A stretch of DNA of 39,867 nucleotides from a virus (IMGVR_UViG_3300045988_181388:1-39867), one strand, 5' to 3'. Shown: positions 7,031 through 37,687, counted from the stretch's first letter. A program made the numbers and translations. The notes: a model not told the origin generated them from the letters alone.

Positions 7031-7255
7031 ATGAAATGCAGAGAAATTACTGTAACGATTGAAGAAGATATTGTAGACCTTGACATAGCAACAAGAAAGA
7101 AGTTTATGAAGCCTTATCAATTAAAATGCGTAATGTACGATGAAAATATCGCAGGATTTAATAGCGCTTTAGATAGTGAAATGGTAAAAATGAGAGCGTG
7201 CGAGATGTTGGATAAACTCAAAGAAAGTATAAAGCAAGGAGTGGTTAATTTATGA
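7031..7255 (+). CDS. Hypothetical protein (74 aa)
   Basis: Tightly packed ORF in the early operon. Confidence 0.55.
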   Translation: MKCREITVTIEEDIVDLDIATRKKFMKPYQLKCVMYDENIAGFNSALDSEMVKMRACEMLDKLKESIKQGVVNL

Positions 7256-8007: not shown

Positions 8008-8531
8008 TATCAATTAAACCCGAATGGTTAGAAAAAATCATAAGAGGCGGGAAAACAATCGAGGTGAGGAAGTCCGCGCCGAAAGAAGTACCGTTTAGAG
8101 CGTATATCTATTGCACGAAATCAAAGGAATATGAAGTAACCGTAGATGAGGTACGTAACGACGGTAAGGAAAGACATCACAGTGGCAAAGGAAAAGTTGT
8201 AGCGATGTTTGTTTGCGATAGGGTTGAGGTATTTACACCGTCAGAATATGGAATAAAATTTAAAAGATTTAAAGCATTGCACGAAACAGGTTTAACCGTT
8301 TCCGAAATGAGAGAGTACGCAAACGGCAAGCCCCTCTACGGATGGCATATAACCGATTTGAGGATTCTTCCTCGACCGCAAGATTTAAGCATTTATTCGG
8401 GCAGGAAGAGAGTTTTAAAAGGTGAAAAAGTCGAAATAGAAAAGCCCTGCATTTTCGGCAGCGGCAATAGGCTCAAATGGAAGCCTATACCGTTAACCCG
8501 TCCGCCGCAGTCGTGGCAATATTTATACTAA
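7992..8531 (+). CDS. ASCH (PUA-like) domain protein
   Basis: The N-terminus LISIKPEWLEKIIRGGKTIEVRK and the later GKVVAMFVCDRVE resemble the ASCH signature (from memory). Confidence 0.6.
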   Translation: MESVLISIKPEWLEKIIRGGKTIEVRKSAPKEVPFRAYIYCTKSKEYEVTVDEVRNDGKERHHSGKGKVVAMFVCDRVEVFTPSEYGIKFKRFKALHETGLTVSEMREYANGKPLYGWHITDLRILPRPQDLSIYSGRKRVLKGEKVEIEKPCIFGSGNRLKWKPIPLTRPPQSWQYLY

Positions 8532-8542
8532 GGAGAGCAAAT

Positions 8543-8890
8543 ATGAAAAAAGAGATAAAAAAAGAAAAAGTTGTAAATTTTATAATTATTTTAGTTACGG
8601 TTTTGGTTGTATGCGCCCTTGTTTTTGTTTATTTAAAAGTATTAAAAACAAAGCGGATTGAAACAGCGGAGAACGTTCCGACGGCTTCATGGTTTGAAGA
8701 AGACTTAAAAGACCTATTCATGACGGAGAGCGTTCGCGTTATAGATGTAAACGACAAGATAAGCGAGCGGGCAATCGTTACCGTGGCGGTTACCGAAGTT
8801 AACGGAAGCGATAAGTATTACCATTGTTTGTATAGAGTAAAAAGCGTAATGGGAATCGGCTACGTTTGGGAACTTGAGAGATATATATAA
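8543..8890 (+). CDS. N-terminally membrane-anchored protein (115 aa)
   Basis: ATG 8543 follows AAGGAGAG. The N-terminus MKKEIKKEK is followed by the TM segment VVNFIIILVTVLVVCALVFVYL. Confidence 0.6.
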   Translation: MKKEIKKEKVVNFIIILVTVLVVCALVFVYLKVLKTKRIETAENVPTASWFEEDLKDLFMTESVRVIDVNDKISERAIVTVAVTEVNGSDKYYHCLYRVKSVMGIGYVWELERYI

Positions 8891-32034: not shown

Positions 32035-32059
32035 AGCTACCGAGAAAACCTCGGTAGCT
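32035..32059. terminator. Bidirectional terminator between convergent genes
   Basis: 10-bp stem agctaccgag / ctcggtagct, with T-tracts on both strands. Confidence 0.8.
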
Positions 32060-32066
32060 TATTTTT

Positions 32067-32510
32067 TTAGTCGTGATAAGGTCTTTCCAATTTATCAACA
32101 ACCGCGTAGGCGGTTATGTCGTTCGGAAGAATTTTCCCCGAAAGCCAATTTTCCAAAGTCCTCTGCGGGACTTTGAGATATTTTGCAAATTTAGGAACGG
32201 TTAAATTGTACTTGTTACGATAAGCGTTTAATCTGTCGTCAAGGTCGAAGTAAATCGGATCATAACTGAAATGAAAGTCATTAGCCGCTTCTTCGTTATA
32301 ATCGTCGCTGCCGTAATCGTCAAACGTCTTATAATTAACGTCGTTCGGAATCTCATTTGAGCGAAGTTCTACACGATAACGCGAATCTTTACATCTGTCT
32401 TTTTCATTGCGAGCGTATTCAATCGCTTCCTTTTTATCAAGAGTTCTAAGCTCTTCCCATTCATCACTGGTGCCGACATTGCTTACAGAATATACCGTAT
32501 ATAATTTCAT
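32067..32510 (-). CDS. Operon gene 3: unknown N-domain fused to a C-terminal XRE/antitoxin-type HTH (147 aa)
   Basis: LTVPKFAKYLKVPQRTLENWLSGKILPNDITAYAVVDKL resembles HigA/MqsA-type HTHs (..rTlqnWE-G-r-P..). Confidence 0.65.
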   Translation of the reverse strand: MKLYTVYSVSNVGTSDEWEELRTLDKKEAIEYARNEKDRCKDSRYRVELRSNEIPNDVNYKTFDDYGSDDYNEEAANDFHFSYDPIYFDLDDRLNAYRNKYNLTVPKFAKYLKVPQRTLENWLSGKILPNDITAYAVVDKLERPYHD

Positions 32511-32523
32511 AATAAATCTCCTG

Positions 32524-32715
32524 TTATTTTACTAAGGTTACATTCCAACCTTTTGCTCTATATGTTTTTAAAAAACTGCCATTATACGAAAGCATCATAA
32601 ATTCGGGGATTCCGAACGCCTTTGTTTTCGGCGTACTTTCAAGCTTTATAACGTCTTCGCGAATTTTAGCATTAAGTTCAAATTTTATCTTTCCGTTTGT
32701 TGCTGTAACTTTCAT
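32524..32715 (-). CDS. Operon gene 2: small beta-rich protein (63 aa)
   Basis: ORF with an SD, 13 nt upstream of gene 3. No motif recognised. Confidence 0.55.
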   Translation of the reverse strand: MKVTATNGKIKFELNAKIREDVIKLESTPKTKAFGIPEFMMLSYNGSFLKTYRAKGWNVTLVK

Positions 32716-32760
32716 TTTTAATATCCTTTGCGGGGATTAGCCGCCCCGCTCGGCTTTTGT

Positions 32761-32958
32761 TTATTTATTTAAAGCGTTTAAATATGCTTTATATTGAGCT
32801 TCAACAGCGGTCATCGCTTCTTTGCTTTCTTTATCAAATTGAGACGAGTAATAATTTATCGCCGTGCAAGCCCATTCTACGAAGTCGGCTTTTTCTTTTG
32901 CTGTTCCGTTTTTTGCTATTTCGATTGCTTGATTGATTGCTTGTTCTAAATTTTCCAT
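32761..32958 (-). CDS. Operon gene 1: small helical protein (65 aa; alternative start at 32994)
   Basis: ATG 32958 lies 8 nt after AAAGGAG. The track start 32994 would be almost leaderless relative to the promoter. Confidence 0.55.
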   Translation of the reverse strand: MENLEQAINQAIEIAKNGTAKEKADFVEWACTAINYYSSQFDKESKEAMTAVEAQYKAYLNALNK

Positions 32959-33005
32959 TTTCATTTCTCCTTTGGGGTTTTCCCCCTCGCTCATCTTGTA
33001 CCTAT

Positions 33006-33034
33006 ATTATACCACCACCGTGGCGGTATGTCAA
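33006..33034 (-). promoter_or_regulatory. Perfect consensus promoter TTGACA-N17-TATAAT with an imperfect palindrome in the spacer
   Basis: On the minus strand, TTGACA is at 33034-33029 and TATAAT at 33011-33006. The spacer contains ACCGCCAC-g-GTGGTGGT (7/8 symmetric). Confidence 0.75.
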
Positions 33035-33071: not shown

Positions 33072-33093
33072 TTTTAGCAACATTTTAGCAACG
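33072..33093. repeat. Arm-type repeat set 1 (ttttagcaaca x2)
   Basis: The 21-mer ttttagcaacattttagcaac is identical at 33072 and 33314. Confidence 0.85.
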
Positions 33094-33220
33094 AAATTTT
33101 TTAAAAAGATTTTTAGAAATATAGAGAAACGAAGTAAAAAGACGGCAAAAACCGATTAAAAAAGGGTAAACAAAGAAAAACAGGGCTTTATATTCAACCC
33201 CTGTTATCTGCACCAATATA

Positions 33221-33249
33221 AAAAGGCTATCGTTTGTCGATAGCCTTTT
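33221..33249 (-). terminator. Hairpin terminator downstream of int
   Basis: Stem of 10-12 bp, aaaaggctatcg / cgatagcctttt, with T-tracts on both strands. Confidence 0.55.
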
Positions 33250-33292
33250 TTCTTAGGTTTTATCTGTGATTTTGCGATTTTTATATGCTTGC

Positions 33293-33314
33293 ATTTAAAC
33301 AAAAATGTTTAAAT
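33293..33314. repeat. Perfect 9-4-9 palindrome ATTTAAACA-AAAA-TGTTTAAAT
   Basis: Read directly. It abuts arm repeat set 2. Confidence 0.85.
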
Positions 33315-33335
33315 TTTAGCAACATTTTAGCAACA
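33314..33335. repeat. Arm-type repeat set 2 (ttttagcaaca x2)
   Basis: Identical 21-mer, same orientation, 242 bp from set 1, next to the int stop codon. Confidence 0.85.
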
Positions 33336-33339
33336 AATA

Positions 33340-34572
33340 TCAAAATTTAAAGTTTTTGAGCACCTCTTTTTCGCGTTCTTTATATAGGTCGCCGTAGGTA
33401 TCAAGCGAGTATTTAACGGAATGTCCGAGACGGTGAGCGACGATGTAAGCATCTTCGGCTTTGGACGCGCCTGTTGAAAAGATAATCGTCGCGTGCGTGT
33501 GTCTGAACTGGTGCGGCGTAATTCGCTTTACGCCCGCAATCTTAATATATTTATCCATATCATACCTTAAAGATTGCGGCGCAAGCGGCTTCGATTTATA
33601 GAACATGAAATCATTTGCCTTAAGTTTAAGCGTTTCGATATATTCTTTTAAAAGAGGCTCGAGGGCTTCGGGGATATCTTCAACAAGCGCACTGTGCGTC
33701 TTTCTGTCGGTTATAGCATAAGTCTTGCCCTTGCCGCGTTCTTCGGCTGTAAGCTTGTTTGTAACGTTTTCATCGATAAGCACGGTATGATTTTCGAAGT
33801 CAATCTTTTTGACTTTTAACGCTGTAGCTTCGCCACGCCTGTTTGCCATGTAAAACATGTAGTTAAAGAAGATATAATATATATAATGTTTGCGCGCGAT
33901 AACGTTCTCTGTCCAATCTTTTCCCGCAGCCTCTCTTGCGGCTTCGTAACAGCCTTTAACGGTCGCATTAAATTTTTGCCAATCTTCAATTGTCCACGCT
34001 TCTTTTTTTGTCTTATCGCGGTTAAAGCCTTTTATGCGTTGATAATCTTTATAAGGCTGGTCGATATTGTATTCGAGCGAAGCGTAGCGAAGAACGCGCC
34101 CGAGTAAATTCCACGTTTTAAATATCGTGTTTTTGGCGTAATCGGATTTTGCGAGTTTATCGCGAAAAGAAAGTAAACAAGGCTTATCAACATCAATCAT
34201 CGAAAGTTTCCGAAGCGGTGCAAAACGGATCTCGAAAATGCCGCGGTCGGTTATCCAGGAAGACTGTTTACATTCCGCTTTCATCTGTTTAAGTACTTCA
34301 TCGCAGACTTCGCCGAACGTAATTCCGATAGGATTTTCGCGCCGTTTTGTGCCGCTTTCATATTCGAGGTAAGCGCGTTCTGCTTCCTTTTTGGAGTTGT
34401 ATGCACCAAGCTTTTTTTGTTTATACTCGCCATATTCAAGGGCGCGGAATTGCGCATACCATTTATTAACGTTTTTAAGCTCTGAACGGCATTTAGGGCA
34501 TAATACGCGCTTTTCGGTTAAATACTTAGCGCATTTTGGGCAATATTTTTCGTAATGTAAATAGCTTGCCAA
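33340..34572 (-). CDS. int: Tyrosine integrase with an N-terminal zinc ribbon and an AP2-like arm-binding domain
   Basis: Catalytic signature is RRGEATAL, HQFRHTHAT, HRLGHS and TYGDLY. The N-terminus has CPKC..CPKC, then WYAQFRA..KKLGAYNSKKEAERAY. Confidence 0.9.
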   Translation of the reverse strand: MASYLHYEKYCPKCAKYLTEKRVLCPKCRSELKNVNKWYAQFRALEYGEYKQKKLGAYNSKKEAERAYLEYESGTKRRENPIGITFGEVCDEVLKQMKAECKQSSWITDRGIFEIRFAPLRKLSMIDVDKPCLLSFRDKLAKSDYAKNTIFKTWNLLGRVLRYASLEYNIDQPYKDYQRIKGFNRDKTKKEAWTIEDWQKFNATVKGCYEAAREAAGKDWTENVIARKHYIYYIFFNYMFYMANRRGEATALKVKKIDFENHTVLIDENVTNKLTAEERGKGKTYAITDRKTHSALVEDIPEALEPLLKEYIETLKLKANDFMFYKSKPLAPQSLRYDMDKYIKIAGVKRITPHQFRHTHATIIFSTGASKAEDAYIVAHRLGHSVKYSLDTYGDLYKEREKEVLKNFKF

Positions 34573-34578
34573 CGTCTT

Positions 34579-34968
34579 TCATCTCCTTATAAATCCTATG
34601 TGAGGATTATATAAATCCCATATCAGAAAAAAAAGTAATACGGCGATCATCGCCACAATAGTAATAAATTGCGCCTTGATGAGCCTGTTTTTATCTCTTA
34701 AACTCCGTTCGTAAACGGTGCAAAGTTGTTCTACAGACTTTGGAGAGATATGCTCGCTGTTATCAGCATTAAGCGAATCGCCTTTAATATCGTCCGCCGA
34801 GCCGCCCAAAGCCTCAACAATTGCGATAACGGTCGTCACGCCCGGGTCAGGCGTTCTCCCCGAAAAAATTCTTTTCACTGTCGAAATCGGCACGCCGCTT
34901 TTATCGGCTATGTCTTGATAAGTCATTTTCGTTTCGTCTTTTAAGGCTTGCATTTTTGTTAAAATCAT
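34579..34968 (-). CDS. Membrane-tethered XRE-family HTH protein (129 aa)
   Basis: The HTH is MTYQDIADKSGVPISTVKRIFSG and the C-terminal TM is FITIVAMIAVLLFFLIWDL. The gene ends 6 nt upstream of int. Confidence 0.75.
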   Translation of the reverse strand: MILTKMQALKDETKMTYQDIADKSGVPISTVKRIFSGRTPDPGVTTVIAIVEALGGSADDIKGDSLNADNSEHISPKSVEQLCTVYERSLRDKNRLIKAQFITIVAMIAVLLFFLIWDLYNPHIGFIRR

Positions 34969-35195
34969 TGTCTTTCGCTCCCTTTAAATATAAAATTGAA
35001 ATTTATTTGCAAATTTGAGCCGTTAGCTCAAAAATGAAACCGTCTTAAAGTTTAAAATCGAGTATAAAAGTTTTAAAATTGGATATTGATTTTCACCCAA
35101 AACGGGTTTATCATATAACCAAACAAAAGGAAATCTTTCATTTAACACAAATTATAGACCTTTTATTCATAAATGTCAAGGGAGAAAGAAAAAAG

Positions 35196-35397: not shown

Positions 35398-35413
35398 TCT
35401 TAATTTTGGTTCA

Positions 35414-36871
35414 TTATGATTTATCGGGTAATAAAGTAGTTTTATTTGTTTTTTGTAAGTAAGATTCTTTTTTTCTGATATAATATTCATAATCATGATT
35501 AACCATAACATAATGAGCAATAGCAATATCGCATACCTTTATAGCCATGTCGAAGTCTTTTCTTCTTTCATATATATTTACAAGTTTATAAAATGAATCT
35601 GAATGATATCCGTCGAGTTCGTTTGTATGACTGAAAATCTCGATATCTTGCCAACATACTTTTATTATGTCTTCCATTATTGCAGGATTGGCTCTGAATT
35701 TGTAAATTTTAGTAATTAAATCTTGCAAGAAGTAATGTTGTCCGACATAAGCCGTGCATTGATATCCCCTGTTTTTATATATATCTTTTTTGGCATAATG
35801 TTGGTCGCGAACTTTCATATAATCATAATAAAGTTTTTCCATATCGGGCGCAAGTGGTTCGGGGGCTTTTATATATTCTTTTGTTTCTTTTAAATGAGCT
35901 TTTACGGCTTCATGTGCGTATTGTAAGATTTTAAGCCCTTCACCGTAAAATCGTTCGCTCATTACTTTAGGAATGGGTTGCTCAGGAAGAGACCAGTTTA
36001 AGTAAATACGCTCAGAAGTAAAATCGGGATTTTCAACAAGAAAGCTGTTAAGATTTAAAGATTCTGATTGATACGTTTGAATTAAATATTCTTTTATTTT
36101 TGATATAAATATTGGGGCATATTGTTTTGTGTATGTATCTGATTTAAACTGAAATTCTTTTCTATATTTAAAAATGTCATCGGCTGTAAAAGGTCTTTGG
36201 CAAATAACAGATAAGGAACAAAAAGCATTAAGATTTGCGCAATCGGTTACATCGTCAAAGTTATTTAAAATAAGTTCCTTGTTTTGATATAAAATTAAAC
36301 TATATATAAGGGTATTAGACGTGTAATTTAAAAACAATTTTTCATTATACGCTTTTCGTAATTTTAAAATAGTATTAAACGCTTTAACAAATTGTCCTTT
36401 GTACAAATGACGTTCCAAGCCATAAAGAAATAAAAAGACATAAGAAAGCTTGTGTTTGCCCGAATATGGGTCTTTCAAAAATTGAATATAGTTATATCTT
36501 TCATAAGGGTTTAAATAAACATAACATGGCGAACGATGTGGTGCTGAATCATCATAATCTGCGGGCGGAATAACAACGGGAATATCAAGATCAATCATGC
36601 TCGGTTCAAATATTTCGTTTTCTTCTGCTTCTTCGTCGGATAGATATCTTTTAATATGCTGTACTTCTATGTTTTTGTGCGAGCCGTTATAAAACCATAA
36701 CAAGTTAAAAACATCTTTATCTATTCCGATATTATCAAAAGTATATTGAATTTTTAACCTTTCAAATTCTTCTTTAGACAACTTAAAAGAGCAAACATCG
36801 CAAAGCCCGTCTTCTAATTTTAAAAATATTCCCCATTTGCCGCAGTTTTTACATTTTTTTATTATACTCAT
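35414..36871 (-). CDS. Zinc-ribbon / TerB-N-like / helical C-terminal domain protein (485 aa); candidate lysogen-expressed defence or exclusion factor
   Basis: The N-terminus has CKNC..CDVC. Residues about 88-156 read FEPSMIDLDIPVV..SPCYVYLNPYERYNYIQFL..LSYVFLFLYGLERHLY, resembling the TerB-N hallmark (from memory). The C-terminus is TPR-like (FYKLVNIYERRKDFDMAIKVCDIAI). The gene is markedly AT-rich by eye and lies 19 nt downstream of the repressor gene. Confidence 0.55.
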   Translation of the reverse strand: MSIIKKCKNCGKWGIFLKLEDGLCDVCSFKLSKEEFERLKIQYTFDNIGIDKDVFNLLWFYNGSHKNIEVQHIKRYLSDEEAEENEIFEPSMIDLDIPVVIPPADYDDSAPHRSPCYVYLNPYERYNYIQFLKDPYSGKHKLSYVFLFLYGLERHLYKGQFVKAFNTILKLRKAYNEKLFLNYTSNTLIYSLILYQNKELILNNFDDVTDCANLNAFCSLSVICQRPFTADDIFKYRKEFQFKSDTYTKQYAPIFISKIKEYLIQTYQSESLNLNSFLVENPDFTSERIYLNWSLPEQPIPKVMSERFYGEGLKILQYAHEAVKAHLKETKEYIKAPEPLAPDMEKLYYDYMKVRDQHYAKKDIYKNRGYQCTAYVGQHYFLQDLITKIYKFRANPAIMEDIIKVCWQDIEIFSHTNELDGYHSDSFYKLVNIYERRKDFDMAIKVCDIAIAHYVMVNHDYEYYIRKKESYLQKTNKTTLLPDKS

Positions 36872-36890
36872 TACATCACACCTTATTGTT

Positions 36891-37253
36891 TTATTTTTTT
36901 GCTTTTACACCTTTAACCAAAATATTAAGCGTATCGGCTATCTTTTTTAAATCGTCTGTAGATAAATTCGATAACGTATCAATATCAAATCCGAGAGCTT
37001 TAAGCCTTTTTTCGGTTATAATATTTTCTCTATTTTCGTTTGTGTTATCATAATATTCCCACCCTGTTAAGTATGCGGGCGAAACCCCTAAAGCTTTTGC
37101 CAACTGTTCAACTGAAGGTAGTGGCGGGGTCGACAACCCGAGTTCAATCTTATTTATAGCCGATAAAGAGCCGTAGCCGCATTTTTCGGCAAGTTCTTTT
37201 TGAGTTAAACCTTGTTCAATCCGTAATTTTTTTACTTTTTCGCCTATAGTCAT
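36891..37253 (-). CDS. CI-like XRE-family repressor (120 aa, no peptidase domain)
   Basis: The HTH is IGEKVKKLRIEQGLTQKELAEKCGYGSLSAINKIELG. The gene is divergent from the consensus early promoter and has SD AAGGAG. Confidence 0.75.
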   Translation of the reverse strand: MTIGEKVKKLRIEQGLTQKELAEKCGYGSLSAINKIELGLSTPPLPSVEQLAKALGVSPAYLTGWEYYDNTNENRENIITEKRLKALGFDIDTLSNLSTDDLKKIADTLNILVKGVKAKK

Positions 37254-37277
37254 TGTCTTTTATCTCCTTGCACGAAG

Positions 37278-37306
37278 AGTATAACCGCAAAAATCCAACT
37301 CGTCAA
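37278..37306 (-). promoter_or_regulatory. Repressor-operon promoter TTGACG-N17-TATACT
   Basis: On the minus strand, TTGACG is at 37306-37301 and TATACT at 37283-37278. Confidence 0.7.
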
Positions 37307-37345
37307 ATAAAATTAGAATTATATTCAAATAATTACTAAAATCGC

Positions 37346-37374
37346 TTGACATTCTATTTTGTGTGTTGTATAAT
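37346..37374 (+). promoter_or_regulatory. Early lytic promoter, perfect TTGACA-N17-TATAAT
   Basis: TTGACA at 37346-37351 and TATAAT at 37369-37374. Confidence 0.8.
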
Positions 37375-37405
37375 TAGCTTGAAATTCAAAAACAAGGAGA
37401 ACAAA

Positions 37406-37687
37406 ATGACACGCGAAGAATTTAATAGTTTAATCGAGCCAGAAAAGACGAAGAGACCGAACGACGAAGATTGGAAGATAATCGAGTTCGTTTATACCTT
37501 TCACCCGTCGATAAGTGAAACACGTGGAAAAGAGCAAATCACCTATTTATATAAAACGTTCGGCATGCGAATCATCAAAGATATGATTCAGACGGCTAAA
37601 AGAGCGGAGGCAATGGAAAAAGAACTTTCCGAACTCCGCGCTAAATACAATAAACTCAAAGACGATTACAACGCTTTGAGCAAATAA
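37406..37687 (+). CDS. First early protein (93 aa), unknown function
   Basis: ATG 37406 follows AAGGAGAA. The track start 37346 is the TTG of the promoter -35 element. Confidence 0.65.
   Translation: MTREEFNSLIEPEKTKRPNDEDWKIIEFVYTFHPSISETRGKEQITYLYKTFGMRIIKDMIQTAKRAEAMEKELSELRAKYNKLKDDYNALSK

Follow-up and report, generated by a model that had tools for sequence, protein, structure and literature searches.

What does an operon of three small genes do at the very end of a prophage? The question is raised by the stretch IMGVR_UViG_3300045988_181388:1-39867, a temperate phage genome of ~39.9 kb whose 39,867 nucleotides are referred to here as the window. Between positions 32067 and 33034 its minus strand carries three genes (gene1, gene2, and gene3) behind a perfect consensus promoter with a palindrome in it. 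A first-pass annotation, made from the sequence alone, took this operon for a candidate toxin-antitoxin (TA), abortive-infection, or defence module. Comparison with related loci points elsewhere: on balance, the locus appears to be an accessory-gene cassette resembling those of anti-CRISPR (acr) and anti-CRISPR-associated (aca) genes, with gene3 as an Aca-like autorepressor and with the upstream genes, here called cargo, most likely acting in counter-defence.

This reading draws by analogy on four features taken together: a promoter of maximal strength; a palindrome in the core promoter; small orphan genes that are exchanged; and a constant helix-turn-helix (HTH) gene at the end. The parts of the operon are, in order of transcription:

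33006-33034, minus strand: sigma-70 consensus promoter, with TTGACA at 33034-33029, a 17-nt spacer, and TATAAT at 33011-33006 (12 of 12 hexamer positions, plus a TG extended -10).
33009-33029, both strands: operator dyad ATACCGCCAC-G-GTGGTGGTAT, with one asymmetric position; proposed site of a gene3 dimer.
32959-32999, minus strand: 5' leader, with a mini-hairpin GGGG-GAAAA-CCCC (32985-32974) and the Shine-Dalgarno (SD) sequence AAAGGAG.
32761-32958, minus strand: gene1 (cargo A), 65 aa, helical, acidic (isoelectric point, pI, 4.8), an orphan.
32724-32754, minus strand: intergenic linker GCCGAGCGGGGCGGCTAATCCCCGC-AAAGGA, ~31 nt, whose hairpin GCGGGG/CCCCGC (32730-32749) immediately precedes the following SD sequence.
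32524-32715, minus strand: gene2 (cargo B), 63 aa, basic (pI 10), an orphan.
32067-32510, minus strand: gene3, 147 aa, with an N-domain (aa 1-88; 32247-32510) and a C-terminal XRE HTH (aa 89-147; 32067-32246).
32035-32059, both strands: bidirectional intrinsic terminator, a stem-loop with a T-run on each strand, common to the operon and the convergent late operon.

The genes form one transcription unit, with a single promoter, a single terminator, and intergenic gaps of 13-45 nt. In these respects the first-pass annotation was accurate: the open reading frames (ORFs) of 65, 63, and 147 aa are as it described, the promoter matches at every hexamer position, and the terminator facing the convergent operon scores on both strands. 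The palindrome it placed in the spacer is real and in fact longer, overlapping both hexamers: the 21-bp dyad shares one base (the last) with the -35 hexamer and three (the first) with the -10. By our own estimate, a 40-kb window should contain ~0.01 perfect promoter sites by chance. Of 22 related loci, 21 have exactly these hexamers and one, L022, has TATAGT. The generalised operator pattern occurs once in the window, against a chance expectation of 0.12.

Some smaller points concern these elements. A weak half-match to the operator with one mismatch, ACCGCCACGGTAACGAT, lies at 8774-8790 (minus strand) inside an early-region ORF; its left half-site is intact, and it is probably due to chance. 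Locus L032, from a GC-rich phage, combines a perfect palindrome with another inverted repeat immediately ahead of the -35 hexamer. The idea that the dyad is an RNA hairpin or a terminator was rejected: it lies upstream of the transcription start, its loop would be 1 nt, and it lacks a T-run. A 77-aa version of gene1 starting at ATG 32994 was rejected as non-coding. That codon lies inside a leader kept before unrelated genes, and the SD sequence is placed for ATG 32958 (GGAG, 32967-32970, 8 nt ahead); gene1 is therefore taken to encode 65 aa.

Do the three genes travel together, as the parts of a module should? The comparison set comprised 22 related loci, all with the promoter, the leader, and gene3. 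Between these constant parts lie 11 configurations of 12 small proteins (cargo A to L, 46-117 aa, seven of them acidic):

Cargo A+B: the window and L006-L009.
Cargo A alone: L012 and L023.
Cargo C (107 aa): L011.
Cargo D (58 aa): L014.
Cargo E+F: L010, L015, L019, and L020.
Cargo E+H: L018.
Cargo G: L013, L016, and L017.
Cargo I: L004, L005, and L022.
Cargo J: L024.
Cargo K+L: L026.
No cargo: L021, where gene3 starts 150 nt after the promoter.

The 12 proteins are mutually unrelated (no pair at E < 0.01). Flanking DNA is 84-93% identical where the cargo is unalignable, and gene3, including its N-domain, remains 58-95% identical across loci despite the swaps upstream. Homolog counts also differ: ~40 close homologs for gene3, ~50 for gene1, and only three for gene2. 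Homologs of gene1 (~70% identity) occur without partners in long small-gene arrays of ~148-kb phages; the context of another, P0096, is uninformative. A gene2 homolog (84% identity) adjoins cargo F (94% identity) in an unrelated phage, represented by L027 and L028, that lacks gene3. Because A is found in the absence of B, and B in that of A or gene3, and because the cargo is swapped, an obligate three-component system is excluded; gene1 and gene2 are independent of each other and of gene3. Thus, of the proposal that three genes behind one promoter form a TA or defence module, the single operon behind a perfect promoter is supported, and the module is not: its genes are not co-inherited, and its cargo is replaced.

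In L027 (4926-8831; L028 is alike), the B and F genes lie between those for the large terminase and the portal, under another promoter. They are followed by genes for a 121-aa protein, an SNF2 helicase, a PAPS-reductase/DUF3440 protein, and a ParB_N protein, the last two of which resemble an IbrA/IbrB-like pair. The region resembles an accessory island inserted in the packaging module.

None of the 12 cargo proteins, gene1 and gene2 included, has a usable match in Pfam, PHROGs, PADLOC, or NCBIfam, and no toxin family was found for any of them in Pfam, NCBIfam, or PADLOC. PDB sequence searches with gene1, gene2, and cargo F returned nothing. Our own inspection of the sequences revealed no transmembrane segment in any cargo protein. 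Homologs of the 4-kb region, gene3, gene1, and cargo F were absent from GenBank phages and PLSDB plasmids; judged from these sequence searches, the whole group appears to be confined to uncultured phages of human-gut Clostridia. Full-text literature searches with peptide and operator strings gave nothing or primer noise.

What, then, is the constant protein? The AlphaFold2 model of gene3 (mean predicted local distance difference test, pLDDT, 87.6) shows an acidic beta-beta-alpha-beta N-domain followed by the XRE HTH, in agreement with the description of an uncharacterised N-domain joined to an antitoxin-style HTH. That no family could be recognised holds for gene1, gene2, and the N-domain of gene3; it does not hold for the HTH, which is of the HigA2/YiaG type and has the Vibrio cholerae antitoxin HigA2 as its closest solved relative (E 8e-4, 30% identity, root-mean-square deviation ~1.5 Å over ~54 residues, with the match limited to the HTH domain). 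Structure-based searches, which the first-pass annotation had proposed, divide in the same way. Foldseek with full-length gene3 against PDB and BFVD found nothing beyond the HTH, and the N-domain, which belongs to no Pfam family, gave a best E value of 1 when compared alone with PDB. In PADLOC, gene3 has a weak HTH-level match to MADS Mad1 (E 0.005) and otherwise no usable match to a defence model. An exhaustive profile search did find the N-domain elsewhere: as a free protein of 84-90 aa, in fusions to other HTHs, and in P0104, where it is joined to the C-terminal module of cargo J. In distant relatives of gene3, the N-domain is conserved at ~60% identity and the HTH at 80-85%.

An HTH nearest that of an antitoxin is what would be expected if gene3 were a HigA2-like antitoxin and autorepressor, and gene1, gene2, or both were its toxin. 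The gene order (one or more small genes and then the HTH gene) also recalls higBA, gene2 is basic, and an operator within the promoter would suit an autoregulated TA system. Nevertheless, what this TA module would need is a partner, and gene3 is retained behind 12 unrelated families or, in L021, behind none. Cargo A occurs without B or alone elsewhere, and B without A or gene3; no RelE, ParE, or other toxin domain was found, and PADLOC gave no match; the N-domain of gene3 is predicted to be folded, rather than the disordered tail that binds a toxin; and versions of the regulator consist of the HTH only. The same holds for HigB2-HigA2 of V. cholerae as a specific precedent. It offers the nearest solved HTH and an HTH gene placed last in a small operon, whereas the operon described here has neither a conserved partner toxin nor a RelE-fold protein and keeps a folded N-terminal part whatever lies upstream. 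The earlier TA interpretation derives solely from the HigA2-like HTH and is contradicted by the comparative data, which already largely refute it; we regard it as very improbable. The broader class of toxin-antitoxin, abortive-infection, or defence genes is likewise not supported, the cargo being swapped or absent and without toxin-family or PADLOC defence matches.

Does gene3 act on the dyad in its own promoter? Three kinds of comparative evidence make the suggested autoregulation by the HTH protein likely: the symmetry of the dyad; covariation in L018; and linkage of operator and HTH in IMG/VR. Across nine operator variants, 96.7% of pair cells are symmetric. Two dyad positions change on both sides, giving six such cells, a count reached in one of 500 shuffles. 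Only L018 has QPTLEHW in place of QRTLENW as its recognition helix, and only there are operator positions 5 and 13 changed; this type of HTH would be predicted to prefer ACCGTCAA-T-TTGATGGT to the operator of the window, and the HTH of the window the opposite. The HTH of L018 is 75% identical to that of gene3 in the window, and the N-domain 91%.

Scanning IMG/VR for the operator identified 85 contigs, with 82 sites in promoter context (76 of them TTGACA...TATTAT). A gene3-type HTH is encoded no more than 2.6 kb downstream at 68 of the 82. The other 14 comprise 13 truncated loci and one, L095, without an HTH gene; hence 68 of the 69 sites with enough downstream sequence have the HTH. (The operator match in L095, where a methyltransferase follows, was rejected as chance-like.) In the proteins encoded at these IMG/VR loci the HTH is always C-terminal, and the part that precedes it is either absent (proteins of 55-57 aa) or of four other kinds (75, 111-112, 173-188, and 229-249 aa). 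Because operator and HTH co-occur across genomic backgrounds, there is good indirect evidence from sequence that the HTH is the cognate repressor of the operon, and repression by gene3 itself seems probable.

Two features of the IMG/VR loci deserve mention. In L034-L116 the first gene is usually one designated c1, which has no Pfam match, and regulators with differing N-terminal parts follow. L111 contains the operator-bearing promoter twice, at 7049-7070 and 8333-8354 (~1.3 kb apart), so its regulator may control two operons.

Which known systems does the locus resemble? Three published traits of acr-aca operons apply directly: a strong consensus promoter, an inverted repeat in the core promoter, and a repressor of the HTH type encoded downstream; some aca genes moreover stand alone (PMC9410906). 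The same operon signature is described in a second report (PMC13551039). As in acr-aca operons, one or two small orphan genes lie co-directionally and directly upstream of a conserved HTH gene in one transcription unit; they vary between related elements while the HTH gene stays; the consensus promoter has a conserved inverted repeat in its core (PMC9410906); and the regulator can stand without cargo, as does that of L021 (PMC9410906). Unlike in the operons with Aca1-Aca14, the cargo is not a known Acr, the HTH is of the HigA2/YiaG type and carries an extra N-terminal domain, and a conserved hairpin linker sets the first cargo gene apart.

The domain architecture of gene3 also has precedents. 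Bifunctional fusions of an HTH to an effector are documented for AcrIIA1 and AcrIIA13-15 (bioRxiv 10.1101/787200; PMC7104187). In AcrIIA1 (Listeria) and AcrIIA13-15 (Staphylococcus), as here, a conserved HTH is combined with a variable, separable second domain; the gene3-type HTH is found alone (55-57 aa) or with at least five different N-terminal parts. In AcrIIA1 and AcrIIA13-15, the HTH recognises a palindrome or inverted repeat within the promoter of its own gene, and the proteins are encoded with variable acr genes in Firmicutes prophages (bioRxiv 10.1101/787200; PMC7104187). The differences are that the HTH is N-terminal in those proteins and C-terminal in gene3, that there is no sequence similarity, and that a role for the second domain of gene3 would be assigned by analogy.

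These likenesses suggest how the cassette would work. Its maximal-strength sigma-70 promoter would fire once host RNA polymerase meets the phage DNA, transcribing a slot of small, horizontally exchanged cargo genes (here gene1 and gene2) and then the constant last gene, gene3. The HTH dimer of gene3 would bind the 21-bp dyad in the spacer and bring the operon down to a low level, which would persist in the lysogen. The cargo proteins would most likely be inhibitors of host defence, either of the anti-CRISPR type or of another anti-defence type. Finally, gene3 is possibly bifunctional: like AcrIIA1 and AcrIIA13-15, it may carry a fused effector, namely its acidic N-domain. The class that fits the locus best is the acr-aca kind, with a regulator and cargo that could be placed in no named family tested.

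Several observations weigh against this reading. By NCBIfam, PDB sequence searches, and Foldseek of the N-domain, neither the cargo nor the gene3 N-domain resembles any known Acr or other anti-defence protein. No named Aca family was detected for gene3; Aca2 alone appeared, at E 0.19-0.4, and only for an HTH-only relative. The PDB includes Aca1, Aca2, Aca10, AcrIIA1, AcrIF24, and AcrIIA15; a profile of gene3 compared with all PDB chains, and thus covering the Aca families with a solved structure, had no Aca or Acr among its matches at E ≤ 1. Among solved structures, the HTH is nearest to that of an antitoxin. The covariation of protein and operator comes from a single lineage. The large IMG/VR family does not show a variable first gene: its c1 (~142 aa) is conserved. 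Variable small genes at prophage ends can also be other morons, for instance for host takeover or exclusion. Anti-defence function of the cargo is, by analogy, about an even call.

The possibility of other morons leads to a serious rival: a generic autoregulated moron slot, whose cargo would serve host takeover, superinfection exclusion, or lysogenic conversion, and whose gene3 would only set the level of expression. Both the variable slot and the autorepressor fit this account equally well, no cargo protein resembles a known anti-defence protein, and morons typically sit, like this operon, at a prophage end under a promoter and terminator of their own. Lambdoid moron cassettes, for example, are likewise self-contained units of promoter, gene, and terminator that lie between the late genes and attP and vary in content; what sets the present locus apart is an autorepressor of its own and a constant frame for recombination (the leader, the linker, and the start of gene3). 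What a generic slot leaves unexplained is the combination of small soluble orphans, a constant terminal HTH, an in-promoter palindrome, and HTH-effector fusions, which is the signature by which Acrs are found (PMC9410906, PMC7104187). In addition, many exclusion proteins have a transmembrane segment, and our inspection found none in the cargo. We consider the generic moron slot possible, if less probable than a cassette of the acr-aca kind.

How close is the operon to the attachment site, and could that proximity explain gene3? On the plus strand, genes for replication, packaging, head, and tail and other late genes extend up to 32028. The minus strand then carries the operon, an intergenic region, a tyrosine integrase gene (int, 33340-34572), a gene for a 129-aa HTH protein, and further lysogeny genes. 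The relevant features of the intergenic region are:

33193-33215, plus strand: attP core TTCAACCCCTGTTATCTGCACCA, resembling a tRNA 3' end, with CCA at its end.
33072-33092, plus strand: arm-type repeat TTTTAGCAACATTTTAGCAAC (P' arm), with 38 bp between it and the operon's -35 hexamer, which lies downstream of it.
33314-33334: second, identical copy of TTTTAGCAACATTTTAGCAAC, next to int.

In an alignment of ten homologous intergenic regions, L010 (a contig of a Clostridia metagenome-assembled genome) leaves all of the phages exactly at the tRNA-like 3' end, in reverse complement; past the attP core it has host flank with a terminator and an unrelated gene. L011, an IMG/VR provirus contig, begins exactly at the core CCA, and two further contigs stop close by, L008 at 33251 and L009 at 33226 (11-36 bp from the core). 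The two arm-type repeats co-vary among relatives (GTTGCT to GTGGCT), a joint change that integrase arm sites would be expected to show, and the integrase has a weak Arm-DNA-bind_4 match. All the hallmarks of a tyrosine-integrase attP site are thus present (a core like a tRNA 3' end, arm-type repeats, an adjacent int gene, and a junction seen in an integrated copy), and core, junction contigs, and arm repeats together place attP between int and the operon. The position of the operon next to attP, at the prophage end, had been recognised correctly; in the prophage, the operon promoter lies ~160 bp from the host junction and transcribes inward. Scans of the window and four loci detected no intact tRNA, as these contain only a 3' fragment of one.

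The attP anatomy (core, two repeats, and hairpin) spans 33072-33334. The hairpin, a perfect 13-bp structure at 33220-33250 beside the core, would terminate both int and the reconstituted tRNA. Rfam gave sub-threshold matches only, including STnc390 over core and hairpin at 34.9 bits. Relatives have at least three different att cores, suggesting that their tRNA targets differ.

Proximity to attP raises the question of whether gene3 is a recombination directionality factor (excisionase) or other attP-associated factor, the operon being part of the integration module. The operon lies ~160 bp from the core, with an arm-type repeat just upstream, and NCBIfam gives the HTH two weak matches: an excisionase domain at E 0.14 and, at E 5e-4 but below the cut-off, the VC1465 Xer activation factor. 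Yet the window has a gene3-type operator nowhere but in the promoter of gene3 itself, and none in the att arms. In L004, promoter and gene3 are retained although no integrase was called in that 20-kb locus, and a Bro-N gene is found upstream; near the 68 IMG/VR operons there is no homolog of the window integrase; and the gene3 protein as a whole is acidic. On the strength of the operator, L004, and the IMG/VR operons, an excisionase role was rejected, and an attP-associated function in general has very little likelihood.

To return to the accessory-gene cassette, its fixed frame includes two hairpin-bearing elements. The leader folds at -8.2 kcal/mol (z -2.2), and the same leader is kept ahead of unrelated first genes in relatives. 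The linker occurs in one copy per locus in the 23 fetched loci that have it; L024-L026 are without it. It is always found directly after the first cargo gene or immediately ahead of gene3. Within the linker hairpin, L021 has one compensatory change and L016 one G.U change; the predicted stability (-13.8 kcal/mol, z -1.7) is unremarkable. The leader mini-hairpin (32974-32985) is related to the linker hairpin. The linker might serve as a flank at which cassettes recombine and are exchanged; it might stabilise the mRNA or partially terminate transcription, uncoupling the cargo and the repressor; or the regulator might bind it as RNA. For the last of these, RNA binding by Aca2 and Aca1 offers a comparison (PMC13551039).

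A second 12/12 TTGACA-N17-TATAAT promoter lies at 35151-35179 (minus strand), upstream of int and of the 129-aa HTH gene (34579-34968), whose product has a hydrophobic C-terminus on inspection. The lysogeny region also contains a second variable slot (35408-37680 in the window, compared with L006:6083-7111), flanked by the HTH gene next to the integrase and by the repressor region. In the window, this slot encodes a 485-aa protein with a weak TerB_N match and a 120-aa repressor-like HTH protein; in close relatives, it encodes a 108-aa HTH protein, a DUF6290/RHH antitoxin, and a ParE toxin. The genuine ParE/antitoxin pair of the relatives is located there, not in the operon.

What would the operon mean for the phages that carry it? 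Tentatively, in a proposal that is somewhat doubtful as a whole, gene3 may represent an undescribed, widespread family of Aca-like regulators in phages of human-gut Clostridia, with a C-terminal HTH of the HigA2/YiaG type and the operator ACC(A/G)CCA-N3-TGG(T/C)GGT set in a consensus promoter, marking a hypervariable slot for counter-defence genes; the 12 cargo families and the interchangeable N-domains would then be new inhibitors of Clostridial defence, and the linker a new element of post-transcriptional control or of cassette exchange. The locus is also a warning against an easy annotation error: a HigA2-like HTH is not necessarily an antitoxin, even when its gene closes a small operon. 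To our knowledge, few counter-defence genes are known from gut Clostridia phages. If the reading is true, the operator motif and the HTH profile would together provide a guilt-by-association handle on such genes in uncultured phages of this group, and would nominate about a dozen orphan proteins (gene1 and gene2 included) and several fused N-terminal domains that are testable by cloning.

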